A stretch of DNA of 64,000 nt from an uncultured Chloroflexia bacterium (GTDB lineage Bacteria; Chloroflexota; Anaerolineae; JAAYZQ01), in contig CAVOXA010000014.1 of assembly GCA_963700285.1 (NCBI GenBank), forward strand, positions 672,001-736,000, written 5' to 3'. This document shows, piece by piece, positions 11,590-54,418 of the stretch (the stretch's first letter is position 1; every line of letters begins with the position of its first letter). The translations under genes were made by a program, and so were the position numbers. A model generated the notes under the pieces. That model saw only the letters and a list, made by a program, of their open reading frames with translations. It did no database searches and was not told where the DNA came from.

Positions 11590-12170
11590 ACCGTCCTCAA
11601 GGCACCGGAGTGTCTTTCCGAAGCCATGGCTTCCCATTCATGACGCAGCAGGCCATAGAGGAGCATGTCATGACGCTTACCATCCCGTTGCAGGCGTTCG
11701 CGGAATACCCCCTCCCGCCGAAAGCCTACCCTGTCGACCAGGGCCAGGGAGCGCTGGTTGTAGCTGAATACCGTGACCTGGACCCGGTGCAGGTTCAACT
11801 CGTCAAAGGCATAGCGCAGGGCGAGCTGCGTGGCTTCGTAGCCATATCCCTTACCCCGGTTGGCCCGCTCGCCAAAACCCAGGCCCATGCCACAGACGCC
11901 GTGCTGCCAGTCGACGCCATCCAACTCCAGATAGCCCAACAGAGCATCGCCTTCCAGGGAACGCACCGCAAAAAGAAACGTGCTCTTGTCCTCCGCGGCC
12001 GCGGCCAGCCACTTGCCGAGTTCGGCCTCGGTCATGGGGTAGGCTGGCCGTGAATCGTAGAGCCGCAAAAAGCCAGCATCCTCATACCAGCCGGCAAGAG
12101 CCGGCAGGTCATCCTCTGTCAAGGACGTCAGCCGGGTATTCCTACCGCGGAACAGGTTCATGGATATCAC
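11586..12170 (-). CDS. GNAT (RimJ/RimL-like) N-acetyltransferase
   Basis: RGKGYGYEA, ELNLHRV, NQRS...GFRREG. Confidence 0.85.
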   Translation of the reverse strand: MISMNLFRGRNTRLTSLTEDDLPALAGWYEDAGFLRLYDSRPAYPMTEAELGKWLAAAAEDKSTFLFAVRSLEGDALLGYLELDGVDWQHGVCGMGLGFGERANRGKGYGYEATQLALRYAFDELNLHRVQVTVFSYNQRSLALVDRVGFRREGVFRERLQRDGKRHDMLLYGLLRHEWEAMASERHSGALRTV

Positions 12171-13624
12171 GATGTCCTCACGTGCTGTGATCCGTTGGCT
12201 GCCCGGGCACGGGCGTACGCGGCCAATGTCCGTTCTCGCGCCCAGGCATGGTCAACGATGGGTACTGGATAATCCTGACCGATGAGACAGCCCGCCTTGC
12301 GCTGATCCCCAAGCGCCATCTCCCATGGAGAGTGGATGTAGCGACGGGGCACGCGCTCCAGTTCTGGCACCCATGTTCGTACATAAGCGCCCTCTGGGTC
12401 GTGCCTCTTCCCTTGCAGGACTGGATTGAAGATACGAAAGTAGGGCGCAGCATCTGTCCCAGTACCGGCGCTCCACTGCCAGCCCCCATTGTTGGCGGCC
12501 GGATCGCCGTCCACCAGATGTTGCATGAAGAACCGTTCTCCCCACCGCCAGTCTATCAGCAGATCCTTCACCAGAAAGGAGGCGACGATCATGCGCGCCC
12601 GGTTGTGCATCCAACCCGTTTGGACCATCTGGCGCATCGCGGCATCCACCACGGGACAGCCGCTGCGCCCTTCGCACCAGACTCTGAATGCCTCCTCATC
12701 GTTCGCCCATTGGATACCACGGAGGTTGGGGCGATAACTCTGCTCCAAGACGGCAGGATAGTGGTGCAGGTTCGACATATAGAACTCGCGCCAGATCAGC
12801 TCGGTGAGCCAGGTCTCAGCCCCTTTTCGGCTTGCCGTACTGGCCATGCCACTCGGAACAGCTTCGACAGCCTCAAATGCGTGGGCAATTGCCTGTCGGG
12901 CAGACAACATGCCAAAGCGTAGGTATGGCGACAGCTGCGAGGTACCCGCTTGATCAAGGCGGTTGCGGGTTTCAGAATATGACTCTATGCCGAGACCGTC
13001 AGAGTCTATGAAGCGCTCCAGTCGCTGTTTGGCGGTCTTCTCTCCAGGGACAAACAGGGCATTCGGGCCGAGTGATGGCGCTTCAGGGATCGGGTAGCTG
13101 TCCAAACTGGGTACTGCAGGCAGGCGCTCCGGAGCGGCAAAAAGATCCCGTATCCGCGGCAGAGGCAATGACCGCCACGTCCGGCTGAAGGGCGTGAATA
13201 CTGTGTAAGGCGTCCCATCCCGCTTGTGTACCATCGCAGGTGGGTGTAGGGTCAGGCCACCGCTCAATTGGAGCGGCAGTACCTGGGCCACCCGAGCATC
13301 CCTTGCGCGGCCGTAAGGCCAACAGTCCTCCTCAGCATGGATGGATTCGGCCCGGGTTTCACCAAGCAGGCAAGAAAGCTGCTCCAGCGGATGGCCGTAG
13401 CGAACAATGAGACGACTGCCCCTGGCTCGCAGGCCGGTGTCGAGCCTACGCAGACCCTCCAGCATGAACGCCACGCGCTTGTCCCCGGCATCGCCCGCCT
13501 GGAGTAGAACAGGGTCCAGGACAAAGACCGGGATTACCCGTGCTGCCCTCTCCAGCGCAGCAGCCAACGCCTGATTGTCCGTCAGCCGCTGATCGCGCCT
13601 GACCCACCACAAGGCTGTACTCAC
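12167..13624 (-). CDS. phrB: Class I CPD photolyase (canonical)
   Basis: TSQLSPYLRFG, ELIWREFY, HNRARM, DGDPAANNGGWQW, TDAAPYFRIFNP; substrate-pocket and Trp-triad residues present. Confidence 0.95.
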   Translation of the reverse strand: MSTALWWVRRDQRLTDNQALAAALERAARVIPVFVLDPVLLQAGDAGDKRVAFMLEGLRRLDTGLRARGSRLIVRYGHPLEQLSCLLGETRAESIHAEEDCWPYGRARDARVAQVLPLQLSGGLTLHPPAMVHKRDGTPYTVFTPFSRTWRSLPLPRIRDLFAAPERLPAVPSLDSYPIPEAPSLGPNALFVPGEKTAKQRLERFIDSDGLGIESYSETRNRLDQAGTSQLSPYLRFGMLSARQAIAHAFEAVEAVPSGMASTASRKGAETWLTELIWREFYMSNLHHYPAVLEQSYRPNLRGIQWANDEEAFRVWCEGRSGCPVVDAAMRQMVQTGWMHNRARMIVASFLVKDLLIDWRWGERFFMQHLVDGDPAANNGGWQWSAGTGTDAAPYFRIFNPVLQGKRHDPEGAYVRTWVPELERVPRRYIHSPWEMALGDQRKAGCLIGQDYPVPIVDHAWARERTLAAYARARAANGSQHVRTS

Positions 13625-20001: not shown

Positions 20002-20023
20002 GTCTTGATCCTCCAAAATCGGG

Positions 20024-21751: not shown

Positions 21752-21925
21752 TCAGACAGCGGCCGGATCGGAGACATCGGCCTCAAACAGGTCGGATGTC
21801 CACTCGGCGAGTTGGCTCGTGTGGCGGCCCATGGCCAGAACGCGCCAACCCCCATCACTCAATTGGGCAACCAGCGCCCGGCCAATGCCGCCGCCTGCGC
21901 CCCAGATCATCGCCTTTTTTGCCAC
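21752..21925 (-). pseudogene. N-terminal remnant of SDR oxidoreductase (57 codons)
   Basis: MAKKAMIWGAGGGIGRAL...DLFEADVSDPAAV*; paralog of 47128-47763, cut at the deletion junction. Confidence 0.8.
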
Positions 21926-22021
21926 GATTCCTCTCCTTGCTCTCGCACTTTTCGGTTTACGGAAGGACCCGAGACGTTTTCGTTGAACAAGGACCCTGTC
22001 TGGTCTGCTGACTCCTGGGCA

Positions 22022-23473
22022 CTAGGGCTTGACCGGTTCCCGAACGTTGCCAAATGACTCGATGGCTCGATCCCGCGCCCAGCCGTGATCCAGGATTGGG
22101 GCTGGATAGTCCAGGCCAATGGCACAAACTGACTCGCGTTGGACATCCGGGGGCATGGTCCATGGCTCGTGAATGTAGCCGACGGGCACGTCGGCCATTT
22201 CCGGTAGCCAACGGCGCACGAACGCGCCATTCGGATCGTACTTGCGGCCCTGCAAGACCGCGTTCAGGATACCGAGATCGGGAGCCGCACCTGTACAGGT
22301 GCCAGCCGCCCGCTGCCAACCGTCGTTGTACACCCGCAGGTCGCCTTCTAGGAGGTGCTGCATGAAGAACCGCTCGCCCCACCGCCAGTCAATCAGCAGG
22401 TCCTTCGCCAGGTTAGAGGCCGGGACCAGGCGTGTCCGGTTGTGGAGCCAACCGGTCTGGGCTAGTTGGCGCATTGCCGCGTCTGCGTGCGGATACCCGG
22501 TGCAACCCTGGCGCCAGGCATCGAAAGCCGCCTGCTAGTTCTCCCAGGGCGTGTGTCGAAATTCGGGGCGGAAGCCCTGCCTCAGAGCCTGGGGAAAATG
22601 AATCTGGATCGAGACGGCGAACTCGCGCCGGATCCGAGCGTCTAGCCACAGCACGGCACCGTGCCGCGCCTCAGAATCCGGGGCGGCATCCATGGCACTG
22701 AGCGCGCTCAGAACGGCCTGGCGAGCGGAGAGCATCCCAAACCTCAGGTATGGGGACAGCCGGGACGTGCCCCCACATCCAGACGGTCACGTAGCTCGTC
22801 ATAGCGGTAGATCGGAGCTGCGCTGGCCGGATGATGGGTCTCACCGCGCCAGTCCACAAAAGCTTGCAGCCGCCGTTGCGCCTCCGCTTCACCCGGCTGG
22901 AAGGGCACGAGAGAAGAGAGCGCAGGATCCCTCGGAATTGGAAAGCTGCCAACATCGGGCAGTGGAGATAGTTGCGTCGGAGGCCGGAGCACGTCGCGCA
23001 CAGGCGGCAGCGTCAGCGCTTTCCATGCCTTGCTAAAGGGGGTGAAGACGGTGCAGGGCTGGCCATCGTCCTGTCGCAGGGCAGCCGGCGAGTGCACAGT
23101 CAGGCCAGCGCTCAAGTACAGGGGCAGGGCTTCGGCAACGCCCACGTCCCGCTCTTGTGCGTAGGAAGAGAAATCCTCCTCAGCAAATATCGCGCTTGCC
23201 CCTGTCCCGCTCATAAGCGCACTCAACTCCGTTCTTGGTTCGCCGCGACGGATAATATGCCGACTGCCTCGAGCACTCGATTCATCGTCCAACCTGCGCA
23301 GACCTGCCAGCAAGAATGCAAGGTGTTTTTCGCTCGAATCGGGTGAGGCCAAGACTTCCCTATCAAGTAAATAAACTGGCACTCTGCGACCTGCATGAGC
23401 CAGCGCAGACGCGAGGGCCTGATCGTCACTCAGGCGCAGATCGACGTACCCACCAAAGTGCAGTCATCGTCAT
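22022..23473 (-). pseudogene. Degenerate photolyase paralog (copy A)
   Basis: Aligns to 47779-49233; indels plus an in-frame TAG at 22535 (GAT in copy B) and eroded motifs (LEGDLRVYND). Confidence 0.8.
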
Positions 23474-23507
23474 GGTACAATCCAGCCTTCTAGGGTCGGA
23501 AGAAAGA

Positions 23508-23618
23508 TCACTCCCGATGGTCCTTTCCGCGGAGTTCAGAAATCGCAGCGATGGTCAGTGGTCCTAGCGTAGCGAGAGTGGCCAACAGACCCAACACAAA
23601 GATAAAGGCATCGCTCAT
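23508..23618 (-). CDS. 36-aa hydrophobic micro-protein (copy A)
   Basis: MSDAFIFVLGLLATLATLGPLTIAAISELRGKDHRE; SD GGAGG, ATGA-coupled, conserved in copy B. Confidence 0.7.
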   Translation of the reverse strand: MSDAFIFVLGLLATLATLGPLTIAAISELRGKDHRE

Positions 23619-23794
23619 TCCTGCCTCCTCCATGCCAGTACAAAGGCGCCGAAGGAAAGGATGGAGGGAACCCAAATGCCCACAAAGATGGCTTGCTCCT
23701 TTGAGCCAGCGAACCACAGGAATGTCGACAGCAAGAAAGACATACCGGCCGCCAACAGAATGCTATATCGGCTAATTCGCCACCAGTTGTTCAT
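23615..23794 (-). CDS. 59-aa two-TM micro-protein (copy A)
   Basis: MNNWWRISRYSILLAAGMSFLLSTFLWFAGSKEQAIFVGIWVPSILSFGAFVLAWRRQE; SD AGGAG; frame conserved in copy B; absent from ORF track. Confidence 0.75.
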   Translation of the reverse strand: MNNWWRISRYSILLAAGMSFLLSTFLWFAGSKEQAIFVGIWVPSILSFGAFVLAWRRQE

Positions 23795-23931
23795 TACCTT
23801 CTACTCCTTTTGCTTTTTTGACCATCACCAGCAGTGTTGCTTGCCCTGCTGATTGCGGTGACCTTCGTTCCCATTCGACGTTTATGCCTGATCACTCTTA
23901 TCCACCGATAGCCTTATTCTTATACCTTGAC

Positions 23932-23960
23932 ATGATACCATACCACCGTGGTTTTGTCAA
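23932..23960 (-). promoter_or_regulatory. Sigma70 promoter of micro-ORF/photolyase-paralog operon (copy A)
   Basis: TTGACA-17bp-TATCAT. Confidence 0.7.
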
Positions 23961-24093
23961 GAATTTGAAATGAATTTCGCGTTAAGAACGCGTACAAACT
24001 TGACAAAAACTGTGCACTTTCGTGCGCTATCCCTTAGTCCATCCTCAACGAAACGGTTCGTACAGATTGCACTTGGCGCAAGGCTGTTCGGTC

Positions 24094-24420
24094 ATGACGG
24101 CAGCAGAATACGAGTCGATGATCCAGGAACTGCTCACCCACGCAAACGAAGAGATGGGGCATGCTTGTGTCCTGTCCGACCAAATCGATTTCCTGGGAGG
24201 ATTCCGGGTGGTGGACGTGGAGGAGATCAAGACCTCGGGCGACAACACAGAGATGCTCGAGCAGGATCTGTCAGGCGAGTTCCAGGCCATTCCCGCTACT
24301 TAGGAGCGGATCCCTGAGGCCGAGTCACTTCAGGAGTATGGACTCAGGCGTACCCTGGAGGACATTCTGATTGTCGAGGAGGAACACGCCTGGGACCTAC
24401 TGACCGCTCTGGGCCGCTAA
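24094..24420 (+). pseudogene. Bacterioferritin-like remnant (copy A)
   Basis: HANEEMGHA, MLEQDL..E, ILIVEEEHA ferroxidase motifs; first helix missing, frameshift. Confidence 0.7.
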
Positions 24421-24532
24421 GTGAGCAACAGAAACCGAATCCACAGTGGGCTGATTCGATCCCAACCCCAGACTTGCCTGATCCAGCATGCCAGGCAGAT
24501 CACGGCGAGCAAAGAGGGGGCGGTAGAAGAAA

Positions 24533-24568
24533 AAGAGGTGAGCCCGCCGGGAAGCAGGATCACCTCTT
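24533..24568. terminator. Hairpin terminator between bfr remnant and DUF4397 (copy A)
   Basis: AAGAGGTGA...TCACCTCTT inverted repeat with A-run; also present at 50478-50516. Confidence 0.65.
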
Positions 24569-24585
24569 GCAAAGAAGGAGAAGCT

Positions 24586-25398
24586 CTAGTCCTCGATATT
24601 GATCTCGGACCTGCGAGTCCGAAGGACGAAGCCACCGGCGATCAAGGCCAGGCCCGCGCCCAGGACAAGCAGCAACCAAGAGTTTGTGGTCTGGCCGCCC
24701 GTCGTCGGCAAACTGGCAGGCGTGGCCACGTCGTGGCTGGCATCAACGCTGGGCACCGCCGTCAGGGCAGGCTCACCGCTGGCCAGGCCCATGGCAAAGA
24801 TGGTGTACACCGTTCCGTCCTCAAGTGTCACCCCGGGCACGCTCAAGGCCACTGCATCCGTACCAGCGAGACGCGCTTCCAGGTCATAGGTGCCGGCATC
24901 GACGGGTAAATAGTCACCCACTCCCTTGAACGCTACATCTGAGAAGAGTACGGGACCACCGTTCGCCACCGCGATGTCAACGGCCGGGGCATCGGGTGAA
25001 GCGTGCACAAAGCGTACGTGGGCCTTGCCGACGGCGGGGGCACTGTTGTTGTCTATCAGGACCAAGGGCTCGATGTTCTCCAGCGTGCCGACAGCAACGA
25101 CCGTGTAATCGGTCTGCGTCGCTAGGTCGAGATTGGCATCAATGACGATAGGCTCTGTGGCGCCGGTTGGGGACACCTGGACATTATAGGAGCCGGGCTC
25201 GAGCACGGCATAGTCGGTGATCCCTTTGAAAGGCGCATTGCTGAATGCTACGGCGCCGTTGACCCAGACGTCAACTGCCGGAGCATCGGGTGAGGCGTGC
25301 ACGACACGCACACGAGCTTCGTGACCATCAGCAAAAGCACTAGTGGCCAGGACCAGACTGAGAACCAGAACAGCAGAGACTACGAATAGACGTTTCAT
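24586..25398 (-). CDS. DUF4397 surface protein with LPXTG sorting signal (copy A)
   Basis: Signal peptide, two RVVHASPDAPAVD-type repeats, LPTTG + TM + RTRR tail. Confidence 0.9.
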   Translation of the reverse strand: MKRLFVVSAVLVLSLVLATSAFADGHEARVRVVHASPDAPAVDVWVNGAVAFSNAPFKGITDYAVLEPGSYNVQVSPTGATEPIVIDANLDLATQTDYTVVAVGTLENIEPLVLIDNNSAPAVGKAHVRFVHASPDAPAVDIAVANGGPVLFSDVAFKGVGDYLPVDAGTYDLEARLAGTDAVALSVPGVTLEDGTVYTIFAMGLASGEPALTAVPSVDASHDVATPASLPTTGGQTTNSWLLLVLGAGLALIAGGFVLRTRRSEINIED

Positions 25399-25444
25399 TT
25401 TTTTCCTCCATGCTACCTGTGATTTGATGAACTACCATATGAGG

Positions 25445-25484
25445 AGTATAGCACAGAAATCTTTTTTTGTCAAGTCTTTGTCCA
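25445..25484 (-). promoter_or_regulatory. Sigma70 promoter of DUF4397 gene with 11-bp-phased TnnACA repeats
   Basis: TTGACA-17bp-TATACT; TGGACA exactly 11 bp upstream of the -35. Confidence 0.7.
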
Positions 25485-25681
25485 TATTCTTTACGGATTT
25501 CTAATGCCGCCCCTCCTGTGTCTGGTTGATTCAGACAGAAAGTGATTTTCTATCTCTGAACCATTCGCTGCGATGTTGGGCTGAGGGTTCGCGGGCCGGC
25601 CAGATCAACTACCCCCTGGCTGACGTGCTGCAACCAGGGGATAGTATGCTGCGGAGCAGGGCTGGGTCAGATGGCCATCGT

Positions 25682-27945
25682 CTAGGATTCCAGGGCGGCC
25701 TTGACGCGCTCCGGCGTCATAGGCAGGCGCCGCAACCGGACACCCGTCAGAGCAAAGAGAGCATTGCCGATGGCAGGGGCAATCGGGCCGATGGGTGGCT
25801 CGCCCAGGCCGCGCGGTCTGCCATCGGGCGCTTCGAGCAGGATCGTCTCTACCTCCGGCGCCTCGGCCATTCTGATCAACGGATAGCGGTCAAAGTTACC
25901 GGCCTGCACGCGGCCATTCTTGACCGTGATCTCTTCCATGAGCGCGGCGCTGGTGCCCATCACAATGCAGCTCTCGATCTGGGCCCTGGCCCCGTCGGGG
26001 TTGATGGTCCGGCCAGCATCCACCGCGGCCACCACCCGGTGAACCTGGATCCGACCACTATCTCGGTCCAGCGAGATCTGAGCAACTTCGACGACCACGG
26101 TCCCGCCGTCGCTACTGCAGGCGATGCCCTGTACTCGACCCTGAGGTTGGGGCTTCTCCCCAACGGGCTCGCGCCGCCGCCGCTTCCAGGACGGCGCCGC
26201 ATGCGCCGTCCAAGAGCATCGTCGAGGCAGGTGAGCCAGGCGAAAAGCAGAGGATCGACGCCTGCCGCGAAAGCAAGTTCGTCGACAAAGCTCTCGATGG
26301 CGAAAGATATTGGCCATCAGGCCCAGGCCACGCCACGAACCGGTGGGGATCGGCATGGGCGTCTCCAGACCGTGGTATCCCGGTTGGCGATGTCATAGAG
26401 GATTTGGCGCGCCACGGGTCGAGCCAAAGTCAAAGCCCAGGATCTTGCCAACAGGGGCGGGAAAGGCGCCAAACAGCGCGTCGCCACTGGCCTGCTCGTG
26501 GCATAGGCTTCGATCTCGCCCCTGGTCGTCCAGGATCGCGCTCAGTCGGTGATGGGTGAGCGGGCGCACAAAGCCATCGCGCATTTCTTCGAAACGGTCC
26601 CAGCCGACGTGGACCGGCGCGCCCACGGCCCTAGACAGCCGGGCCGCTTCCACGGCAGCACTGGGTACCGGATCGAGCTCGATCTTGCGCCCAAAGCCGC
26701 CACCCAGATAGGTGGGAATGATCTCGACCTGCTCTGGTTCCAGGTCAAGGGCCGCAGCCACCTCCCTCCGGACGCTCATCTCGAACTGGGTGGAGGTCCA
26801 TACCTTGCCCCCGTCCGGGCCGACGATGGCCAGAGCGGCCTGGGGCTCCATGGGAGCATGGGTGGCCATTCCACTGCGATACTCGGCCGTTATGGCGATG
26901 CCCCTTGCTTGAGGAGCGAGGAGACATCACCCTACCGTCTGGATGTTCACACCGCCGCGGCCTCCGACGGTGACCAACTCCTCCAGCTCCTGCCTGCTGC
27001 CAACAGGTAGCCTTCATCCCATTCCACTTCCAGGGCATTACGGGCCGCCCAGGCCTCGAGACGCGACTTGGCCACCACGCCGGCAAAGCCATCCTCGATC
27101 ACCACCTTGACCACACCAGGCATGCTCTCTGCCTCGCCCGGTCCCGCAGAACAGCATCTTGGCCTCTATCGTCGGCCGGTGCACAGCCGCTCCATAGAGC
27201 ATGCCTTCGGCACGAGCGTCGTAGCCAAAGATGGCCTCACCGGTGACCTTGGCGGGCAGATCGACGCGGGGCAGCGATTGGCCTATGAACTTGTACTCAC
27301 TCGCTGGCTTGAGCGGGACCTCGTTCTTCCGGTATCTTCCATGCTACCTCGCGCTGGCCACCAAATCTCCGTAGCTGACCCTGGTTTCAGGATCTGTCCG
27401 CCAGCTCAAAGCCGCCATCGCGGGCGACCAGGGCCTCGGCGGGCTGGTTCAGCACACTGGCCGCCTCGGCGCGCAGCGTCTCTCGCAGGGTCGCCGCGGC
27501 CTGGCGCAGAGGATCGTAGAGGGTGGTCACCGACATGCTGCCGCTGGTGCCCCGAAAGCTGTCGTCGGCCTGGCTGGTGCTGGCATGCTGCACCTCCAGC
27601 TTGTTCCCAGGCGACTTCCAGTTCTTCGGCAGCGATCTGCGCCAGGGCGGTGTGGATCCCCTGGCCCATCTCCGCCTTGGGTACGAATACGAGGACGCGC
27701 CCGTCGGGGTAGACTTCGAACCAGAGCAGGGGATCGAGCGTGCCGCTGGCAAAGCCGCCAGCATCTCCTTCGGTCAGCCCTGCCGCTGCTCGGCGGAGGG
27801 GCGGCAGGCCCAGCGGGATGCCCAGGGCAAGGGCGGCGCCAGTCGCCGCCATACCTATCAAGAACCCGCGCCGGCTGATGTACCATTTGCGCTCGGCATC
27901 GTTCGGGAACCTGGCCGTTCTGCTGTTGCTCGCCGATTCGCTCAC
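25682..27945 (-). CDS. Xanthine dehydrogenase family Mo-cofactor subunit (IorB-like), copy A, many indels (possible pseudogene)
   Basis: ISRRGFL Tat motif, KAEMGQG, HAPMEP, GGGFGRK, GLGEPP. Confidence 0.8.
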
Positions 27946-28433
27946 GCCGCACCTCCACCCGAGGCCGGTCCTGGGGCACTGGCCATCTCTGCGGCTGCGC
28001 GGTCAACCGCCCGCTTGATACGTCCGTAGGCGCCACAACGACAATAGTTGGCGCTCATGCCAGCGATGATCTCTTCTTCTGTGGGGTTCGGATTCTCTTC
28101 AAGCAGAGCAACCGCCCTCATCATCTGGCCGCTCATGCACCAGCCGCACTGGTGCACCTGCTCGTCCAGGAAGGCCTGCTGCACTGGATGCAGCACCCCC
28201 TCGCTGGCCAGCCCTTCGATGGTGCGGATGGCCTTGCCCTTGGCAGCCGACAGCGAAGTGATGCACGAGCGCGTAACGTTGCCGTCCAGGTGGACCTCGC
28301 AGGAGCCACAGATCCCCACGCCGCAACCGAACTTGGTGCCGGTCAGTCCCAATTCGTCGCGCAAGACCCAGAGCAGGGGGCGGTCTGGCTCATCTGCCAT
28401 TTCATATGTTTTTCCATTAACCACGATTTCCAT
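27942..28433 (-). CDS. (2Fe-2S)-binding small subunit (IorA-like), copy A
   Basis: [30 protein letters not shown]. Confidence 0.92.
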
Positions 28434-28496
28434 GCAATGCTCTCCTCACAAGCCTTGACGCTCATCAAGTGTGAAAGGTTGGGTGTCCGAATGGCC

Positions 28497-28628
28497 TCAT
28501 AGCATGCCCAGGATCATAGCGATGCCGACACCTAGCAGCAAGCCCGCGAATGTGCCAACCAATGCGCCAAGTGCTATACCGAGACCCCAACCCACGGCAG
28601 TCTGCAGACACCCTCTGGTTCTTCTCAT
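28497..28628 (-). CDS. 43-aa Gly-rich membrane micro-protein (copy A)
   Basis: MRRTRGCLQTAVGWGLGIALGALVGTFAGLLLGVGIAMILGML; SD AAGGAG; conserved at 54419-54550. Confidence 0.6.
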   Translation of the reverse strand: MRRTRGCLQTAVGWGLGIALGALVGTFAGLLLGVGIAMILGML

Positions 28629-28657
28629 GGCACTCTCTCCTTCACTCGCCAGCCGGT

Positions 28658-42644: not shown

Positions 42645-43823
42645 TCAGAACTGTCCCTGCATTGAGGCGGCATAGCCCGTCATCTCGACGTAGCCGTTGC
42701 CGCCAATGGCCAGACCAGCCCGCTCGCCTTCGACCTGGACCGCACCCTCCCAGTAGGCATAGGACACATCAGTTCCTGATCAGCCAGATAGGGTTCGATC
42801 TCCAGCGTCAGGTCTGCGTCGGGCACGGCAATGGTCCAGCCGGCCGGATAAGTCGGCCCCAGAGTGACGGACTGCGCCAGGTATCATCGACGCGGATCTC
42901 GAAGTCGTCACGGTCGAGATGGCGGGTACTGCCGTCCGGGGTGATCAGGGTGCCGCTGGAAAAGGGATCGATGCTGCCGTCCTCCTTGCGAAGCTGGAAG
43001 GCCATCAACTCGCTTCCGTCGTCCAACTGGATCGAGAACCAGTCCCAGCCCACCTGTTCAGCGGCCAAGCCGCTGGTGCTCCACTCGTGGTCCATCCAGC
43101 TCCAGCCTTCAACCGGGTGGACCACATCCGCGACCTGCACCGTGCCCGTCGTCTCCAGGCGGGTCAGGCTGTAGTAGTAGGAAGCGTTGCCCGGTTGCGG
43201 GCCCTTGGGGCTGTAGCCGCGGTCGCCCTGCAGAATGGGACCCTTGCGGTCAGTCAGCACCAGGTCCAGGACCAGGCCATCCTGAGCGGCGTACATGCGC
43301 GTCACACCCGGCTCGAGCTCCTCCACCTCCCAGTCCTCCAGCCAGACCTGGTAGGGTGTCGGCCTGCGCTCCGGCCAAGCCGCCAGCCCCTCGCGCAGAA
43401 CCGCTCAAAGGCCTGGAAGCTCCCAGCCGACAACGTCGGTCAGGGCAAAGTGGGCCATGTAGACCTGGTCCGCCGCCCAGGTCGACTCGCGATCGCTGCG
43501 CAGCGCAGGCGGGACCAAGGCCCGCCGGAAAAAGGTCAATTGGTAGCCAAAGCGCCGCCCCTCGGCTGTGACCAGGTTGCCGGTATAGTACCACCACTCG
43601 GTCTGGTAGTCCAGGTGTGGGCCGTGGTCGGCGGGGAACTCCAGGTCGACTGGACCCTCGACGCGCAGGTAGCCAGCCGCTGGGCTGCCTCCGTCTCCAT
43701 CAGTCAGGGCAACCAGGCGAGCCTGCACCTGCGGCTCCTGGCGCTGAACCACGAGAAGCGAGCACACCGCCCAGCAGGGCCAGCAGCCCGATGCCGATCA
43801 GAACCTTCAGCCAACGTTTGCAT
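42645..43823 (-). CDS. Lipocalin-like AttH/CrtC-fold protein (indels)
   Basis: FPADHGPH..QTEWWYYTG, FGYQLTFFR, SYYYSLTRL, WMDHEWS, GWDWF, EMTGY. Confidence 0.85.
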
Positions 43824-43832
43824 GATGGATCC

Positions 43833-46420
43833 TCACTCGTAGCGCAGCGCTTCGGCGGTGAGCATCTTGCCCATCTTGCGCGCCGGGTAGATGCCGGCCA
43901 GCAGGGCGGCGACCACGGCCACGGCCAGCGCCGTCAGGAAGGGCGCCGGGCTCGACCTGCATCTGCAGCGTCCAGCCGAAGGAGCGGCGGTTGATGATAT
44001 AGATCAGGATCAGCGACAGGGCAAAGCCGGTGGGCATGGCCAGCAGGCCGGCGACGGCGCCCATCAGGCCGGTTTCGAGCATCACCAGGCCCCAGAGCTG
44101 GCGGGCGGTTAGACCCACAGCCCGCAGGATGCCCACCTCGCGCTGTTTCTCCAGCAGCAGCGACAGCAGGGCGCTGAGCACGCCGATAAAGGCGACCAGC
44201 GTGGCCAGCAATTGCAGCGCGCCGGTGATGGCAAAGGTGCGGTCAAAGATGACCAGCGCCTCGTCGCGCAGCGCCTGGTTGGGCCGGACAAAAAGGCGCT
44301 GCACCGGCGCCAGCGCATCGCCCAGTTCCCGGGCCACGGCGTCGGCGTCGGCGCCTGGCGCCAGGCGGATGGCCAGGGCGGTGAGTGCCTCGTCGTTCCA
44401 GAACTCGTCGATAGGTGTCCAACGACATGGAGATGGTGCCCCACTGGTCACATAGTCGTAGTAGATGCCGGCCACCGGAAGCTCGCGCGGGCCCTCGGCG
44501 GTGTAGAGCGTGACCGTGCCACCGCGGCGGGGCAGGCCGACCAGGTTGGCGTAGGGCTCGGAGACGACGACCGCGCCAGCCTGCATCGCCGCCCAGATCT
44601 CTTCGGGCGAGAGAGCCGTCGGAGAGGAAGGGCCGGTCACCAAAATCGGGATTGTAGACGCCAAAGACCGAGAACCGGACCGCCGGGCGATTCCACCGTC
44701 GCCGTTCGCAGCAGGTCCACGCGCTCGACGCCGGGCCAGGCCTCGACGATAGGCAGCACCGCCGGGTCCAGCGGCGTGGTGGCCTGGGTCGAGGTACGGC
44801 TGGGCGCCGAGACATAGACGTCGCCCTGCAGCACCTGGTCCAGCCAGGTGACCACCGTGGTGCGAAAGCTGCCGATCATCAGGCTCACGCCGATGGTCAC
44901 CGATACGGCCACCATCAGCGCCGCCACGGCGACGGCCGTGCGGCTGATCGAGGTGACGACGTTGCGCGGGGCCATGCGGCCCAGCGCGCCCCAGATACGC
45001 CCCAGGGGCCGGGTCGCAATGCGCATCAGCAAGCGTGGTCACCAGGGGCGTCAGCGCGGCAAAGGCGACGACGATGGCCAGGGTGCCGGCAAAGCTGACC
45101 GTCAGGCTGCGGGTGGGGATGGCCAGCAGTCCCAGACCCAGGGCAGCCAGGACCAGGCTGCCGACGGCCACCCAGGCGACGGCGCGCCGGGCTTTGCCCT
45201 CCAGGCCGGAGCGGGAGAGGGCGACGCGCGGCGGCACCGAGGCCGCTTCCCAGGCCGGCGGCGCGGCGACCAGCACGGTGGCCAGGATGCCCAGCAGCGC
45301 GCCCTTGACCAGGCTGCTGGCTGGCGATCTCGATCTCCTGCACGGTGACGACGAAGTAGAGGTCGTTGATGGTCTGGGTCACCGCCTGCACCGCGCCCCG
45401 GCCCATGACGATGCCCAGGCCCAGGCCCAGGACGGCGCCCAGGACGCCGACGACGAGCGCCTCGCTGACGACCAGGGCAAAGACCTCGCGGCGGGTGACG
45501 CCCAGGCAGCGCAGCGTGCCAAAGAGCGGTCGGCGCTGGACCACCGAGAAGGTCATGGTGTTGTAGATCAGGAACAGGCCGACGACCAGGGCCAGCAGGC
45601 TGAGGGCCAGCAGGTTGAGGCGGAAGGCCGCCGTCATCTCTTCGATGGTGCCGGCGCGGGCCTCGACCCCCACGATCTGGGCGCCGGCCGGCAGCAGGGC
45701 GCGGAGCTCGTCAGCGACGGCCCCCTCGTCCCCGGGCAGGATCAGGTCGATGCGGTCCAGCCGGCCCAGGCGGCCGGTCAGTTCCTGGGCGGTGGCAATG
45801 TCGGCCAGGATCAGGCCGTCGAGGGTGCGGCGGCTGAGCTCGTCGGCCGGGGTCAGCAGCCCGGCCAGGAAGGCCTGGCGCGGGTAGCCGCCCACCTCCA
45901 GGCTCAGGCGGTCGCCCGGCGCCAGGCCATAGTAGGCGGCAGTGTCCGACGGCCAGCAGGACCGCGCCCGGCCGGGTGAGCAGGGCGGTCAGTTCTCCAG
46001 CGGGCGCCTCGCCTGCGCCCCAGAGATAGTTGCGGAAGGGCGCTTCGGCAAAGGGATCGACGCCCAGCAGTTGGAAGGGCCGGTCGCCGAGCTGCGGCGA
46101 ATAGACATAGTCGGTGACGATCGGGGCGGCCGGGAATGCCGCCGGTGGCCAGCCCCTGGCGGCGCAGTGTCGACGTAGAGCGCCTTCGTCCAGCCCCTGC
46201 GGCCCGGCCGACGATCTGGTGGGTGGCCCGCCCGGCGACCGCGTCGGTGCTGTAGTCAAAGGCGCGGGTGGCGCTGGCGTTGGCCAGGTCCACGGCCACG
46301 GCCACGGCCACGCCCAGGGTGATGCCCAGGACCATCAGGGCGCTCTGCCAGGGGTGGCGCAGCAGGTAGCGCCAGCCGATGTTCCACAGCGTGCGCGAGG
46401 CAAAGGTGGCCGGTCTGCGC

Positions 46421-46428
<8 letters not shown>
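43833..46428 (-). CDS. FtsX/MacB-type ABC permease (indels)
   Basis: [37 protein letters not shown]. Confidence 0.85.
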
Positions 46429-47121
<693 letters not shown>

Positions 47122-47127
47122 CGACGT

Positions 47128-47763
47128 TCACAAGTCCAGCAGGCCACGATGGCCATCGCGGCAGGCGGCCAAGATCCGCTCAGCCGCCTCGTCGGGGCTC
47201 ATGGCCCCAGCCGGCAGTTTGAAAGGCACCTTATCCCACAAGGGGGTATCCACGGCAGCCGGACGCACCAAAGTGACCCGGCGCTTGCGCTCCTCCTTGG
47301 CCAGGACCTCGACAAAGGCCTCGAGTCCGGCTTTGGCAGCCGCGTAGGCCGATAGGCGGGGCAGGCGCATCCGCTCGCTGATGGCGCCCAGGAAGATGAG
47401 GCTGGCGTCAGCCGCCAGTAGTGGTAGACTATGGTGCACGGTCAGGTAGGCGCCGACCAGATTGGCATCCAGGATGCGCTGCCAGGACTCGGGCGTCGCC
47501 TGGGCCACCTTGCTAGCGACGATGTCGCCCGCGGCGTAGATCCACAGGTCGATCTGATCCACCCTCTCACCGGCCTCCCCTACCGCGCCCTCTACGGCAG
47601 CTGCGTCGGAAAGGTCGACCTCGAATAGGTCGGACGTCACATCAGCTAGGCCCGTTGTGTGCCGGCCCAGGGCCAGCACTCGCCATCCCTCATTTCCAAG
47701 CTGGGAGGCCAGCGCCCGGCCAATGCCGCCGCCCGCGCCCCAGACCATCGCGTTCTTTTTCAT
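47128..47763 (-). CDS. SDR family oxidoreductase
   Basis: WGAGGGIG, YAAAK. Confidence 0.85.
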   Translation of the reverse strand: MKKNAMVWGAGGGIGRALASQLGNEGWRVLALGRHTTGLADVTSDLFEVDLSDAAAVEGAVGEAGERVDQIDLWIYAAGDIVASKVAQATPESWQRILDANLVGAYLTVHHSLPLLAADASLIFLGAISERMRLPRLSAYAAAKAGLEAFVEVLAKEERKRRVTLVRPAAVDTPLWDKVPFKLPAGAMSPDEAAERILAACRDGHRGLLDL

Positions 47764-47778
47764 GGTTTCTCTCCCCAA

Positions 47779-49233
47779 TTAGCCAGGCCAGACAGGTTCG
47801 CGGACCTTGCCAAAAAACTCGATGGCCCGATCTCGCGCCCATCCGTGGTCCAGGATTGGGGCTGGATAGTCCAGCCCGATGATACAGTTAGTTCGGCGTT
47901 GGACATCCTCGGGCATGGTCCATGGCTCGTGGATGTAGTCAGCAGGCACGCCAGCCAGCTCGGGCAGCCAACGGCGCACGAAAACGCCTTCCGGATCGTA
48001 CATACGGCCCTGCAGGCCCGGGTTCAGAATGCCCAGGTAGGGGGCCGGGCCACTGCCCGTGCCAGCCGCCCGCTGCCAGCCCTCGCTGTTCGATGCCGGG
48101 TCGCCATCCAGCAAATGCTGCATGAAGAACCGCTCGCCCCAACGCCAGTCAACCAGCAGGTCTTTGGACAGGAAGGAGGCCACAACCTGGCGCGCCCGGT
48201 TGTGCAACCATCCTGCCTGAACTAGCTGGCGCATGGCGGCATCCACCAGCGGATAGCCGGTCCGGCCCTGGGCCCAGGCATCGAACGCCGCCAGATCGTT
48301 TTCCCAGGGCACGTTGCGATACTCTTCACGGAATCCCTGGCTCCGGGCCCGAGGGCAGTGGTACGCCATCGAAATGGAAAACTCGCGCCGTATGAGTGCA
48401 TCCAGCCAAAGCTCAGCGCTGTATCGCGCCTCCGCATCCGGGGCGGCGTCCATGGCACTGAGCACGCTTACCACTGCTTGGCGAGCAGAGACCATCCCCT
48501 GGTTTATGTATGGAGATAGCTCCGACGTACCCTCCACATCCAGCCGGTTCCGCATTTCGTCGTAGTGGTATATCGGCGCCAGGCGCTTGGGTTGATCCCC
48601 ATCAACCCAGTCCACAAAGGCTTTCAATCGCCTTTGTGCCTCGGCTTCACCCGGCTGGAAGGGAACGAGTGAGGACAGCTCAGGAACCCTTGGAATTGGA
48701 AAGCTTAGAACATCGGGCGGTGGGGATAGCTGCGTTGGAGGCGGGAGCACGTCAAGCACCAGCGGCTGCGCCAGCGCCTTCCACGCCTTCCTGAAGGGGG
48801 TAAAGACGGTGTAGGGCAGCCCATCACCCTGACGCAGTGCATCCGGTGGATGGACGGTCAGACCCCGCGTAAGGTGAAGGGGCAAGGTCCTGGTCAGTTC
48901 GGCATCCCGCCTTCTGGTGTCAAGGGCATGCGCTGCTTCAGCAAAGATGGCGGTCGCTCCTATCTCACTCCACAGCGCAGCCAGCTCTTCTTGCGGCTCA
49001 CCGCTGCGGACGATCAGCCGGCTGCCCCGGGAGCGCAGGTCGTTGTCTAGCCCTCGGAGACCGGCCAGCAGGAAGGCAAGCTTCTTATCATTCGAGTCTG
49101 GTCCGGCCAACACTTCCTCTTCAAGTATATACACAGGCACGACGCGATCGGCGTCTGCCAGGGCGGCAGCCAGGGCCTGATTGTCACTCAGGCGCAGGTC
49201 GCGACGTACCCACCAAAGCGCAGTCGTCGTCAT
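47779..49233 (-). CDS. Photolyase/cryptochrome-family paralog lacking CPD-binding residues (intact, 484 aa)
   Basis: WVRRDLRLSDN, SELSPY, HNRARQ, DWRWG, DGDPASN; but DALIRREFS, GWQR, LGILNP. Confidence 0.9.
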   Translation of the reverse strand: MTTTALWWVRRDLRLSDNQALAAALADADRVVPVYILEEEVLAGPDSNDKKLAFLLAGLRGLDNDLRSRGSRLIVRSGEPQEELAALWSEIGATAIFAEAAHALDTRRRDAELTRTLPLHLTRGLTVHPPDALRQGDGLPYTVFTPFRKAWKALAQPLVLDVLPPPTQLSPPPDVLSFPIPRVPELSSLVPFQPGEAEAQRRLKAFVDWVDGDQPKRLAPIYHYDEMRNRLDVEGTSELSPYINQGMVSARQAVVSVLSAMDAAPDAEARYSAELWLDALIRREFSISMAYHCPRARSQGFREEYRNVPWENDLAAFDAWAQGRTGYPLVDAAMRQLVQAGWLHNRARQVVASFLSKDLLVDWRWGERFFMQHLLDGDPASNSEGWQRAAGTGSGPAPYLGILNPGLQGRMYDPEGVFVRRWLPELAGVPADYIHEPWTMPEDVQRRTNCIIGLDYPAPILDHGWARDRAIEFFGKVREPVWPG

Positions 49234-49267
49234 AGCATGATCCAGCCTTCTAGGGTCTGAAGAACAA

Positions 49268-49378
49268 TCACTTCTGATGGTCCTTTCCGCGCAGTTCAGA
49301 AATCGCAGCGATGGTCAGTGGTCCGATCGCGGCAACAGTGGCCAACAGACCCAACACAAAGATAAATGCATCGCTCAT
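49268..49378 (-). CDS. 36-aa hydrophobic micro-protein (copy B)
   Basis: MSDAFIFVLGLLATVAAIGPLTIAAISELRGKDHQK. Confidence 0.7.
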   Translation of the reverse strand: MSDAFIFVLGLLATVAAIGPLTIAAISELRGKDHQK

Positions 49379-49554
49379 GTCCGCCCCCTCCACGCCAGTA
49401 CAAAGGCGCCGAAGGCAAGAATCGAGGGCACCCAAATACCCACAAAGATGCCCTGCTCCTTCGAGCCAGTGAACCAAAGGAATGTCGACAGCAAAAAAGA
49501 CATGCCAGCTGCTACAAGAATGCTATATCGGCTGATTCGCCACCACTTGTTCAT
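49375..49554 (-). CDS. 59-aa two-TM micro-protein (copy B)
   Basis: MNKWWRISRYSILVAAGMSFLLSTFLWFTGSKEQGIFVGIWVPSILAFGAFVLAWRGRT; SD GAGGAG. Confidence 0.75.
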   Translation of the reverse strand: MNKWWRISRYSILVAAGMSFLLSTFLWFTGSKEQGIFVGIWVPSILAFGAFVLAWRGRT

Positions 49555-49691
49555 TGCTTCCTACTCCTCTTCCTTTTTTGACTATTGCTGGACGCACCGC
49601 TTGCACCGCAGATTGCGGTGACCTGCGCTCCCATTTCCTGTTGCTGCGTTAAAGCCCGCAGAGACTACTAGTCTTTCTTCCATGCTCTAGC

Positions 49692-49731
49692 ATCATAGCA
49701 TATTGTCATAGTTTTGTCAAGTATTTGAAGA
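49692..49731 (-). promoter_or_regulatory. Sigma70 promoter with three 11-bp-phased repeats
   Basis: TTGACA-17bp-TATGAT; TCTTCA/TTGACA/ATGACA at 11-bp period. Confidence 0.7.
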
Positions 49732-49931
49732 ATTTTTTGCGTTAGAACTGCGTTAAACCTTGACAGGGACTGGACGTCGGGGCGCAGTGTCCACCAATTC
49801 CTCCCCATCAAGCGGTGGCCGCATACTCCACCTTGCGCAAAACTGGTCTATTCTAGCCTGCTTTCTGAAAGACCAAAGAAATTCGAGATTCCGGTCCCGA
49901 TGAGATTCCGGGCGAAAGGAGCCAGTCAGTG

Positions 49932-50347
49932 GTGATCACAAAAGAGCAGCCAGTGGGAAAGCTGAGCAAAGATCTGGCCTGGGAGTGCGCCACATTGACC
50001 TAGTACGTGATGCACTCCTCATCATCACAGGTGCAGAGCACGAGTCGATGATCCAGGCGCTCAACCACACCAACGAAGATTTGGGGCACGCCGTCGCGCT
50101 ATCCGACCAAATCGATTTCCTGAGGGGATGCCTGGCGGTAGAAGTAGAAAAGACTGAGACGTCGAGCGACAGCACCGAGATGCTCGAGGAGGATTTGGCA
50201 GGCGAGCTCAACGCGATTTCCCGCTTCAAGGAGCGGATCGCTGAGGCTGAGCCACTACAAGAGTAGGCACTCAGGCGTAACCTACAGGACATCTCGATCT
50301 TTGAGGAGGAACACGCCCGGGATCTTCTGACCACGCTTGGTACGTAG
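49932..50347 (+). pseudogene. Bacterioferritin-like pseudogene (copy B)
   Basis: ITKEQ..KDLAWE..*YV, MLEEDLAGE, QE*, EEEHARDL; two in-frame stops plus an indel. Confidence 0.75.
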
Positions 50348-50477
50348 GCGATTTGCAGAAAACGAGACCACACCGGACTGATGCTGTCCCAACTCAACAG
50401 CCCCATTCAGTCCGGCAAGTCAACAGGATAAAGGAGGCCCGTGCCCCCAACACGGCAGCACAAGCGGCCAAGACAGG

Positions 50478-50516
50478 AAAAGAGGTGATTCTGCCGAGAA
50501 GCAGAATCACCTCTTT
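50478..50516. terminator. Bidirectional intrinsic terminator
   Basis: AAAAGAGGTGATTCTGC-CGAGAA-GCAGAATCACCTCTTT. Confidence 0.75.
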
Positions 50517-50532
50517 AAAAGAAGGAGAAGAC

Positions 50533-51345
50533 CTAGTCTTTGATGCTGACCTCAGCCTGACGATTCCGGAGGAAAAAGCTTCCGGCTACCAAGGCCAGGC
50601 CCGCACCCAGGGCAGCCAGCAGCCAAGGGTTCGCGGTCTGACCACCAGTCGTCGGTAAGCTGGCTGGAGGAGCCGCGTCGTAGCTAGCATCTACGCTGGG
50701 CACCGCCGTCAGAGCTGGCTCACCACCGGCCAATCCCATGGCAAAGATGGTGTAAACATTCCCATCTTCTAGCATCACCCCAGGCACACTCAGGGCCACA
50801 GTTTCGGTCCCGGCCAGACGAGCTTCCAGATCATAGGTACCAGCGTCGACCGGCAGGTAATCGCCCGTGCCCTTGAATGGCACATTGGAGAAGAGTACAG
50901 GACCACCGTTCGCAACCGCGATGTCAACGGCTGGGGCATCGGGTGAGGCGTGGACAAAACGCACGTGAGCCTTGCCCGCTTCAGGGGCGCTGTTGTTGTC
51001 GATCAGGACCAGCGGCTCAATGCTCTCCAGCGTACCCACAGCGACGACCGTATAGTCGGTTTGAGCGGCCAGATCAAGGTCGGCATCGATGACAATCGGT
51101 TCCGTTGCGCCGGTAGGGGACACCTGGACGTTGTACGTACCAGCCTCGAGGGCGGCATAATCTGTGATACCCTTGAACGGGGCATTGCCAAATGCTACGC
51201 TGCCGTTAACCCAGACGTCGACTGCCGGGGCATCGGGTGAGGCGTGCACGACGCGCACGCGGGTTTCTTGACCCTGCGCGAAAGCACTAGTGGCCAGGAC
51301 CAGACTGAGTACCAAGACGGCGGATACTGCAAACAAGCGTTTCAT
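50533..51345 (-). CDS. DUF4397 surface protein with LPXTG sorting signal (copy B)
   Basis: Signal peptide, two HASPDAPAVD repeats, LPTTG + TM + RNR. Confidence 0.9.
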   Translation of the reverse strand: MKRLFAVSAVLVLSLVLATSAFAQGQETRVRVVHASPDAPAVDVWVNGSVAFGNAPFKGITDYAALEAGTYNVQVSPTGATEPIVIDADLDLAAQTDYTVVAVGTLESIEPLVLIDNNSAPEAGKAHVRFVHASPDAPAVDIAVANGGPVLFSNVPFKGTGDYLPVDAGTYDLEARLAGTETVALSVPGVMLEDGNVYTIFAMGLAGGEPALTAVPSVDASYDAAPPASLPTTGGQTANPWLLAALGAGLALVAGSFFLRNRQAEVSIKD

Positions 51346-51388
51346 TTCTACCTCCAAGCAGATATGGTTTTTTGAAATTCTTGAGGCG

Positions 51389-51439
51389 AGTATAGCACAA
51401 CAAGATTATTTTGTCAAGTATTTGCACATATTTCTTACA
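51389..51439 (-). promoter_or_regulatory. Sigma70 promoter with 11-bp-phased repeats (copy B)
   Basis: TTGACA-17bp-TATACT; TGTAAG/TGTGCA/TTGACA at 11-bp period. Confidence 0.7.
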
Positions 51440-51627
51440 GCTTTCTAATGCTGTGGCAAGCTTAACTATCTAGTATCTGCAGAAATCAAATGATAGAGGA
51501 AGACTCTTGCTGATATCCCCCTGAGAACTGGCCTGCGAACAGCGCTACATCAGAGCCCCCCCTGGCTGCATCCTGCAACTTTGGGATCAAGGGGCGCGGC
51601 ACAGTGTTTTGTCTGGGTATGCCTTAG

Positions 51628-53874: not shown

Positions 53875-54362
53875 ATTGCACCCCCACTCGAGGCTGGTTC
53901 CTCCGCAGTTGTCATCTCGGCGGCCGCGCGACCAACCGCCCGCTTGATGCGGCCGTAGGCGCCACAACGGCAATAGTTGGCACTCATGCCCGCAACGACC
54001 TCCTCTTCTGTGGGATTCGGATTGCCTTCCAGCAGTGCGACTGCCCTCATCATCTGGCCGCTCATGCACCAACCGCACTGCTGTACCTGCTCATCCAGAA
54101 ATGCCTGCTGCACCGGATGAAGCTCCCCGTCGCTGGCCAATCCCTCGATGGTCCGGATGGCTTTGCCCTCGGCTGAGGACAGTGTGGTGATGCACGAGCG
54201 TACCACCTTGCCATCCAAGTGCACTTCGCAGGAACCGCAGATCCCCACACCGCATCCGAATTTGGTACCTGTCAGTCCCAACTCGTCGCGCAGAACCCAT
54301 AACAACGGGCGGTCAGGCTCCTTTTCTACTTGATAGGTAGTGCCATTGACCATAATTTCCAC
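53871..54362 (-). CDS. (2Fe-2S)-binding small subunit (IorA-like), copy B
   Basis: Same Cys motifs as copy A; GTG start downstream of SD. Confidence 0.92.
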   Translation of the reverse strand: MEIMVNGTTYQVEKEPDRPLLWVLRDELGLTGTKFGCGVGICGSCEVHLDGKVVRSCITTLSSAEGKAIRTIEGLASDGELHPVQQAFLDEQVQQCGWCMSGQMMRAVALLEGNPNPTEEEVVAGMSANYCRCGAYGRIKRAVGRAAAEMTTAEEPASSGGAM

Positions 54363-54418
54363 AGAACGCCCTCCCTTTTGGCGATACACGCCAGATGTAG
54401 GACTTTGGCCGCCTTCCA

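Follow-up and report, generated by a model that had tools for sequence, protein, structure and literature searches.

Copy B, as we call it here, is a photolyase paralog whose lesion pocket has been dismantled and whose flavin core has been kept. It is encoded on a 64,000-nucleotide stretch (the window) of a genome from an uncultured Chloroflexia bacterium (assembly GCA_963700285.1, contig CAVOXA010000014.1, positions 672,001 to 736,000), and it belongs to a derived group of proteins that is real, conserved, rare, and apparently not yet described, a variant within the photolyase/cryptochrome family. Copy B is under purifying selection and is very probably a functional flavoprotein that does not repair DNA. 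More tentatively, we take it for a light-induced, nonrepairing flavin sensor of light or redox state, whose Arg-lined pocket may hold a phosphate-bearing ligand. We are evenly divided on a wider reading, in which a cyclobutane pyrimidine dimer (CPD) photolyase would have given rise, independently and in bacteria, to a cryptochrome-like photoreceptor or to a new flavin photoenzyme, with an Arg-lined anion site replacing the lesion pocket and living intermediates (a sister pair with L384, basal members that keep W277, and a crown with R277 and R384) recording the order of the steps.

The lesion pocket of copy B is almost entirely replaced. Its 484 codons are open and encode a protein 53% identical to copy A, the canonical CPD photolyase of the window. 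Residue numbers are those of E. coli, assigned manually from an alignment to 1dnp and then mapped across all the proteins compared. An earlier note on this DNA, made from the letters alone, had named eight substitutions (E274A, W277R, Y281S, M345Q, W384R, D391G, R397G, and F399L), all of which are correct on this alignment, and F396L, N379S, G380E, and M339L are found besides. In E. coli photolyase, E274, W277, N341, M345, and W384 serve as the lesion residues (PMC8476157, PMC5812317), and at these positions copy B reads A, R, N, Q, and R, keeping only N341. The FAD (flavin adenine dinucleotide) residues at 344, 372, 377, 378, and 381 are R, D, S, N, and G, against R, D, A, N, and G in PMC8476157. 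Moreover, Y222, T234, S235, L237, S238, W271, R278, W338, R344, D372, D374, and N378 are unchanged and the Trp triad (W306, W359, W382) is retained, which bears out the intact frame, FAD core, and triad that the note had described. Copy B is predicted to adopt the two-domain photolyase fold, and it scores 334 and 338 bits against the NCBIfam models PRK10674 and TIGR03556 (copy A, 399 and 420), whose cutoffs of 506 and 885 are missed even by the canonical copy. A first structure model, built on 16 sequences, was poor (predicted local distance difference test score of 41), and a homodimer prediction scored 0.00, which bears neither for nor against a dimer.

Copy B is not alone. The best 120 full-length matches sorted into 18 proteins with the derived pocket (copy B and 17 others, 60 to 77% identical) and 102 canonical ones, and a profile made from 16 derived proteins ranked the same 18 first and gained no further members. 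Among 120 short proteins, seven more clusters carry R384, G391, L396, L399, and F473 (the last in the group's own numbering) and 113 carry W384, which brings the derived group to 25 clusters at 90% identity. Its members are Anaerolineae wherever the source states a taxon. Residues were counted in 16 proteins with R384 (three cut representatives being swapped for full-length members of their clusters), the sister pair, the 125 nearest canonical proteins, and, of 150 distant representatives, the 141 with lengths of 400 to 620 amino acids.

The new pocket is largely fixed. R384, G391, L396, L399, and F473 are found in 16 of 16 full-length members, and Arg is lost at 397 in all of them (G in 7, D in 4, S in 3, N in 1, H in 1). 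Position 274 is Ala in 13, Thr in 2, and Ser in 1, and position 281 is Ala in 14, Ser in 1, and Thr in 1. The earlier note proposed a ligand site with two Arg residues; R384 is indeed universal, but R277 is not fixed, with Arg in 11 and Trp in 5. Its suggestion that Gln345 is a DASH-like trait fell, because Gln is present in just 3 of 16 (Leu in 6, Met in 6, Ala in 1). Y222, T234, L237, S238, W271, R278, W338, R344, D372, W359, and W382 are kept throughout, as are R226 and R342; W306 is kept in 15, position 377 is always Ala, Ser, or Thr, position 378 is Asn in 14 and Ser in 2, and G381 is kept in 14. N378S (2 of 16), G381N (2 of 16), and changes at N341 (3 of 16) would fit a protein released from repair catalysis. 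W384, E274, W277, F396, and R397 are unchanged in all 125 nearest canonical proteins, W384 is present in 140 of 141 distant representatives (the other has a gap), and R384 occurs in none of the 266 other full-length relatives examined. Over all cluster members (n = 37), position 384 is Arg in 33, Leu in 3, and uncovered in 1. The group keeps 113 of the 148 sites conserved in canonical kin, fixes 7 to a new residue, and relaxes 28, and the changed sites fall mostly in the pocket, the DNA loop, and the antenna, where D101, Y105, and R51 are relaxed. An apparent gain of constraint at residues 151 to 175 and 251 to 265 was set aside, as the group may merely be younger.

The substitutions are old. 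Those that the earlier note saw shared with a second derived copy in the window, copy C (E274A, W277R, W384R, R397G, and F399L), are common to both, together with D391G and F396L, and read error is ruled out by the orthologs that carry them. On its tree placement, the group is a derived offshoot nested among ordinary Anaerolineae CPD photolyases: the 18 proteins form one branch within them in a quick IQ-TREE run (Shimodaira-Hasegawa-like approximate likelihood ratio test support of 100), and the branch has a support of 99 in FastTree after removal of 19 trait columns. The two L384 proteins (G274, W277, L384, G391, W396, G397, and L399) are sisters of the rest in IQ-TREE, with a support of 87, but FastTree did not separate the R384 rows from the pair, and thus their sister place is unsure. 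The pattern suggests that positions 274, 384, 391, 397, and 399 changed first and that R277 came later.

Copy B is not decaying. The DNA of three group copies entered our own codon model: copy B, copy C, and the gene of G013, a second genome of the family (87% complete, in 820 contigs). Between copy B and G013, the ratio of nonsynonymous to synonymous divergence (dN/dS) is 0.144 at a dS of 1.64, and thus the gene does not behave as one in decay; three canonical pairs with a dS below 2 give 0.105, 0.135, and 0.142, pairs above 2 being left out as saturated. On a three-branch tree, the ratio is 0.23 for B, 0.22 for C, and 0.11 for G013, and a value of 1 is rejected on each branch (twice the log-likelihood difference of 13.8, 15.3, and 72.6, respectively). 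The protein tree of the group has a length of 3.9 changes per site, R384 evolves at a rate as low as that of R344, and codons drift beneath the new residues (CGG/CGA, GGC/GGT/GGA, and CTG/CTC/CTT). The earlier note had named ortholog conservation and dN/dS as the places where its reading could fail; it failed at neither, with 25 clusters and a dN/dS far below 1.

Parts of copy B are found in RNA. Two sediment RNA runs with different study codes, X1 and X5, hold contigs identical to copy B (48797 to 49108 in X1; 48877 to 49027 and 49039 to 49265 in X5), which cover part of the gene, the pocket codons excluded, and X1 contigs also span the leader and the junction of copy B with the next gene. 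In a 19.5-kb control stretch, contigs lie almost solely on one DUF4397 gene, with a 160-base piece on copy C, which argues against plain DNA carryover. The runs were picked through the region of copy B, the gene and control comparisons used different likeness limits, and the contigs carry neither level nor strand. No RNA contig fell on copy A, but the contigs cannot rank genes, and the runs were chosen with the copy B region.

The promoter of copy B is predicted to be of the CarH type. It heads a predicted operon in the order TM1, TM2, copy B, short-chain dehydrogenase (SDR), ABC ATPase, FtsX permease, and CrtC-like protein, and in G013 the derived gene is likewise followed by SDR, ABC, and FtsX genes. 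CarH operators take the form of tandem 11-bp repeats with TnnACA (PMC9304148). Scanned as nnnnTnnACAn over the -35 element, the region holds one full repeat and two partial ones (3 of 4 each), 10 of 12 in sum. The genome reaches this crude score at 133 places, so more weight falls on the promoter core: the best genome-wide match to its 41 bases is the promoter of carH itself (34 of 41), then one in the cluster of another copy, D (31), and then that of copy C (30), whose second repeat has decayed. The carH gene lies 40 kb away on the same contig (G000:C14:760773-762131; L294:1274-2632), G000 being the source genome, and its product exceeds the cutoffs of PF13411, PF02607, and PF02310 and thereby has the MerR, B12-binding_2, and B12-binding domains of a CarH protein. 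The product also contains W-x9-EH and E-x-H, motifs associated with CarH proteins. We note that this CarH-like protein has some 150 extra C-terminal residues with no Pfam match.

The source genome carries four photolyase-type loci on one contig, copies A to D. Copies A and D are canonical, and thus the coexistence with a real photolyase that the earlier note described stands for this genome; it was not observed in G013, where only the derived copy, and no canonical photolyase, was seen in an 87% complete assembly of 820 contigs. PF04244 (the FeS-type photolyase) and cofH were not found in the incomplete genomes G000, G001, and G013, G001 being a congener of the source. Copy C is likely a young pseudogene, because it has an in-frame stop and changes in FAD residues; its frameshifts could be errors, because single-base mistakes occur in patches in this assembly. 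In G001, the derived copy was deleted along with half of the SDR gene, and the operon otherwise survives. There, about seven codons of the derived gene are fused to the middle of the SDR gene (L273, near 1500), a deletion of some 1.8 kb; upstream of the site the DNA is 87% like copy C and 80% like copy B, and downstream it is 89% like that of copy B. TM1 was seen only in the source genome (twice) and in G001, 2 of 23 family genomes. The TM1/TM2 pair also lies at about 23510 to 23795, and it is retained in G001 despite loss of the photolyase paralog. Copy A and its syntenic partner in G001 (L266) differ by a dN of 0.17 and a dS of 1.29, and the flanking proteins are 81 to 93% identical; photolyase genes seem to have been swapped within these clusters.

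How copy B might act can be sketched, although the photoreceptor role proposed by the earlier note, and every step beyond the residue pattern, is inferred. In the dark, CarH would repress the operon, and light would release it. Copy B would bind FAD, because its pyrophosphate contacts and R344-D372 bridge are invariant. Blue light would then reduce FAD through W382, W359, and W306, without help from an antenna, the antenna site being eroded. A thymine dimer could not be seated, because E274, W384, Y281, R397, and the 391-399 loop, presumably the part that enters the duplex, are changed. Instead, with the acidic E274 gone and R384 (later also R277) added beside R226 and R342, the pocket would become a cationic site for the phosphate of a nucleotide or nucleic acid. 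The bound ligand may tune the flavin state, much as plant cryptochromes stay longer in their radical state when ATP is present (PMC10940379), and the flavin state would finally be handed to a partner protein.

Several observations weigh against a sensor. The protein has no obvious output: no fused output domain was found among the profile matches of 229 to 858 amino acids searched, about 10 residues follow the last helix in all 18 derived proteins, and the copy B operon contains no regulator gene. Effector and sensor are equally likely roles for a gene whose repressor is released by light. Moreover, the same neighbor genes, an ancestral light cluster, also surround canonical photolyases of the family, and thus the neighborhood is inherited and points to no specific partner. 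The plant ATP pose is not transferable, because Gly replaces D391, which contacts ATP in plant cryptochromes, throughout the group. P0067 and P0333 have Gly at position 306, and the other tryptophans are conserved as strongly as the triad, so conservation of the triad is no proof of photoreduction. Leu replaces R384 in the sister pair and in a single cluster member, and the invariance of R384 alone is not exceptional, since it is shared by 143 of 484 sites and, among majority-Arg sites, by 20 of 47. Finally, N378, kept in 14 of 16, is the photolyase state, whereas cryptochromes that sense carry Asp or Cys there; single changes at this site do not interconvert photolyase and cryptochrome (PMC9356274).

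The record of the gene in its own family also counts against a sensor. The gene is dispensable, as copy C is broken and the G001 copy is deleted, two losses in one genus, and among 23 family genomes it was found in two (G000 and G013). The B branch has the same dN/dS as the branch of the broken copy C and double that of G013, so copy B was no more constrained than copy C before C broke. A profile search of 401 genomes of the class matched 79, and among the loci whose residues were read only those of G000 and G013 are derived, about 49 lower-scoring matches being unread. A codon-pattern search of the 401 class genomes matched 27, and 1 of 30 loci was a photolyase, that of G013; in a phylum sample of 401 genomes, G000 alone matched, at an E value of 1e-88. 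No derived member was present among at least 160 loci listed by a generic photolyase-pattern search of genomes and metagenomes, a 50%-identity library held no separate derived representative among 141 of 150 rows, and the ESM Atlas gave ordinary photolyase clusters only.

Light might instead drive chemistry on a new substrate. In such a photoenzyme, R226, R277, R342, and R384 would hold an anionic molecule, be it a damaged nucleotide, a cross-link in RNA, or a small metabolite, and FADH- would donate an electron to it. The residues at 377 and 381 and the usual N378 favor the fully reduced state (PMC9356274), the new residues are fixed rather than random, and the neighbors are light-induced effectors behind a CarH-type promoter. 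We nevertheless think it unlikely: intact members carry N378S, D374E or D374G, H340P, and changes at N341, sites conserved in 124 or 125 of 125 canonical kin, the relaxed antenna would cut photochemical yield, and pocket positions 277, 345, 380, and 397 vary within the group.

Alternatively, copy B may do little with light at all. A passive photoprotective protein would hold and quench flavin, or bind nucleic acid through a cationic face with no preference for sequence or lesion, and would signal nothing. Among the functional sets of residues, conservation is highest at the FAD contacts, while sites of redox tuning and of the antenna erode, and R226 and R342 are universal. By its title, Li and Sancar 1990 reports that W277 mutations alter selectivity, and W277R reportedly loses lesion preference. 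The group is more negative than its canonical kin, however (mean net charges of -6.6 and -3.7), R397 and the Y-x-V-F-T motif are relaxed, and 484 amino acids are a costly way to hold one FAD, which makes this role rather doubtful.

CPD repair by the group is unlikely on its residues, because copy B keeps one of five lesion residues, position 384 is Trp or Tyr in every lesion-binding subfamily tabulated in PMC7560933, and the 391-399 loop is changed. A residual activity, weak or confined to single-stranded DNA or RNA as in DASH proteins, would draw on R226, R342, N341, N378, and the triad of copy B, on W277 in 5 and M345 in 6 of the 16, on the automatic names, and on G013, in whose incomplete assembly neither a canonical nor an FeS-type photolyase was seen. 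DASH proteins keep E274, W277, and an aromatic 384, however (PMC5812317), the lesion-binding subfamilies and distant relatives hold to an aromatic 384 as above, and the source genome has two canonical copies; we regard such activity as improbable. A redundant duplicate in slow decay, with no function of its own, would account for the two losses, the 2 of 23 genomes, the B-branch dN/dS, and a W384R change that takes a single transition (TGG to CGG), but it is largely refuted by 18 full-length or nearly full-length clusters with open frames at 58 to 90% identity, a tree 3.9 changes per site long, a dN/dS of 0.14 at a dS of 1.6, the best-kept promoter, and the RNA contigs. The reading of copy B as a sensor, although tentative, is the one that we carry forward.

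Table 1. Features in and around the copy B locus (window coordinates unless a contig is given)
Feature	Position	Strand	Remarks
Derived photolyase paralog (copy B)	47779..49233	-	484 aa; PF00875 and PF03441
W384R codon CGG, group signature	48070..48072	-	16/16 full-length, 7/7 fragments
E274A and W277R codons	48388..48399	-	alignment
Remodeled 391-399 loop (D391G, F396L, R397G, F399L)	48025..48051	-	alignment
Predicted CarH-type operator and sigma-70-type promoter TTGACA-17-TATGAT (at 49720)	49688..49735	-	three 11-bp repeats overlap promoter
TM1, small hydrophobic open reading frame, 59 aa	49375..49554	-	first gene of predicted operon; no Pfam match
TM2, small hydrophobic open reading frame, 36 aa	49268..49378	-	ATGA overlap with TM1; no Pfam match
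SDR	47128..47763	-	directly 3' of copy B; same order in G013; follows canonical photolyase in L263
ABC ATPase, FtsX permease, CrtC-like lipocalin	42645..47121	-	frameshifted here; whole in G001 (232, 861, and 390 aa)
Canonical CPD photolyase (copy A)	12167..13624	-	all lesion-pocket residues present
Second derived copy (copy C)	22022..23473	-	two frameshifts, in-frame TAG, D372E, N378Y
Block ~76% identical to 47606-54563	21768..28641		2Fe-2S, molybdopterin protein, DUF4397, TM1, TM2, derived photolyase, SDR remnant
Second canonical copy (copy D)	G000:C14:155723-157147		alignment

The surroundings of these loci hold further features (Table 1). The DUF4397 genes of the two blocks (50533 to 51357 and 24586 to 25398) encode an anchor-like C-terminal end and have the deepest near-identical RNA contigs of the stretches compared; the DUF4397 promoter resembles the CarH-type one at 26 of 41 bases, and further copies lie at G000:C14:745836-748518. 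Between the DUF4397 gene and the copy B promoter, a stop-interrupted frame (about 49900 to 50400, plus strand) is present in both blocks and in G001. It has acidic and histidine motifs that are putatively ferritin-like. At least five copies of DUF1722, several of them partial, flank light clusters (28658 to 29333, 31256 to 32291, and G000:C14:146875-151424). At G000:C14:749579-754460, a 354-amino-acid protein that matches B12-binding_2 and is helical in its N-terminal part is encoded directly upstream of frames that read as histidine kinase-like and response regulator-like, and it is possibly a B12 sensor coupled to two-component signaling. Finally, patches of single extra bases relative to G001 lie in 14874 to 20699 and 42645 to 47417, with 21 extra and 2 missing bases in the 4.8 kb downstream of copy B, and many of the split genes in the window are likely assembly errors.

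How photolyases become cryptochromes is an open question. To our knowledge, the known transitions between the two are ancient and eukaryotic. The derived group would be a young bacterial transition, about 60% identical to photolyases of the same genome and with graded intermediates, so a few mutations could be swapped either way and assayed. Because it changed the same six positions as plant cryptochromes, to other residues and with no Asp378, it would test which of the steps are needed. Moreover, automatic annotation calls all named members ordinary photolyases, and thus repair capacity in these genomes is overcalled. The group is not described in the literature found, most subscription papers and supplements lying outside the search, nor in the excerpts consulted of PMC9498864, bioRxiv 2021.02.01.429150, and PMC3204975. 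In another excerpt, Chloroflexi proteins, among which Roseiflexus and Chloroflexus are named, model best on class III photolyase, and that passage does not report loss of the pocket (PMC7560933).

Among known families, several can be set aside. CRY-DASH proteins (Synechocystis 1np7, Arabidopsis CRY3) share Gln345 with copy B and two close relatives, but they retain E274, W277, and Y384 (PMC5812317), whereas the group is without E274 and Y384 and has lost W277 in most members. The DASH assignment is rejected, as only N341 and, in 3 of 16, Q345 agree, and TIGR02765 scores 229.5 against a cutoff of 317. A (6-4) photolyase or animal cryptochrome is rejected by the criteria of PMC7560933, with His345 in none of the 16 and R384 in place of Trp. 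Cryptochromes and photolyases of the bacterial iron-sulfur type (FeS-BCP), represented by R. sphaeroides CryB and A. tumefaciens PhrB, are bacterial members with a proposed sensing role (PMC3204975); they differ in class and domain makeup, as copy B descends from a CPD photolyase, matches only PF00875 and PF03441 in Pfam, and has no N-terminal domain of the PF04244 type. With class I and III CPD photolyases (A. nidulans 1owl/1tez, E. coli 1dnp, A. tumefaciens PhrA 4u63, and T. thermophilus 1iqr) the difference is at four of five lesion residues, the remodeled 391-399 loop, the eroded antenna site, and an insertion of six or seven residues near residue 210. E274 and W384 are absent from all 16 members. 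The Trp of RQLW, a methenyltetrahydrofolate contact of PhrA, is Val in 15 and Ile in 1 of the group, and none of the 125 canonical kin has Trp there.

Plant cryptochromes are the closest parallel. Like CRY1 (1u3c) and CRY2 (6x24), the group has kept the FAD core and triad, and Arabidopsis CRY2 is noncanonical at 274, 277, 281, 345, 384, and 399, positions that are all changed in copy B too; the statement of the earlier note that 277 and 384 are replaced in plant cryptochromes is therefore right for CRY2. The residues, however, differ, reading A/R/A/L/R/L in the group and G/L/S/V/Y/D in the plant protein, with S281 common to the plant protein and copy B only. Moreover, in plant cryptochromes, about 32% identical to copy B, D391 and R397 are retained, position 378 is Asp, and a C-terminal tail is present. 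The group has Asn (14) or Ser (2) at 378, no such tail (PMC10940379), and Leu, Met, Gln, or Ala and Arg in place of Val345 and Tyr384 (PMC7560933), and it is not a plant-type cryptochrome, because Asp378 and the tail are missing. The likeness is, on these alignments, a convergence on positions and not on residues, with a separate origin. In function the group likely resembles a plant cryptochrome, with repair lost and the flavin core kept. Its setting recalls the light-inducible CarH/LitR operons of T. thermophilus and Myxococcales, which have 11-bp repeats over the -35 element in common with it. Here, though, the photolyase slot is filled by a noncanonical paralog under a CarH link predicted from sequence.

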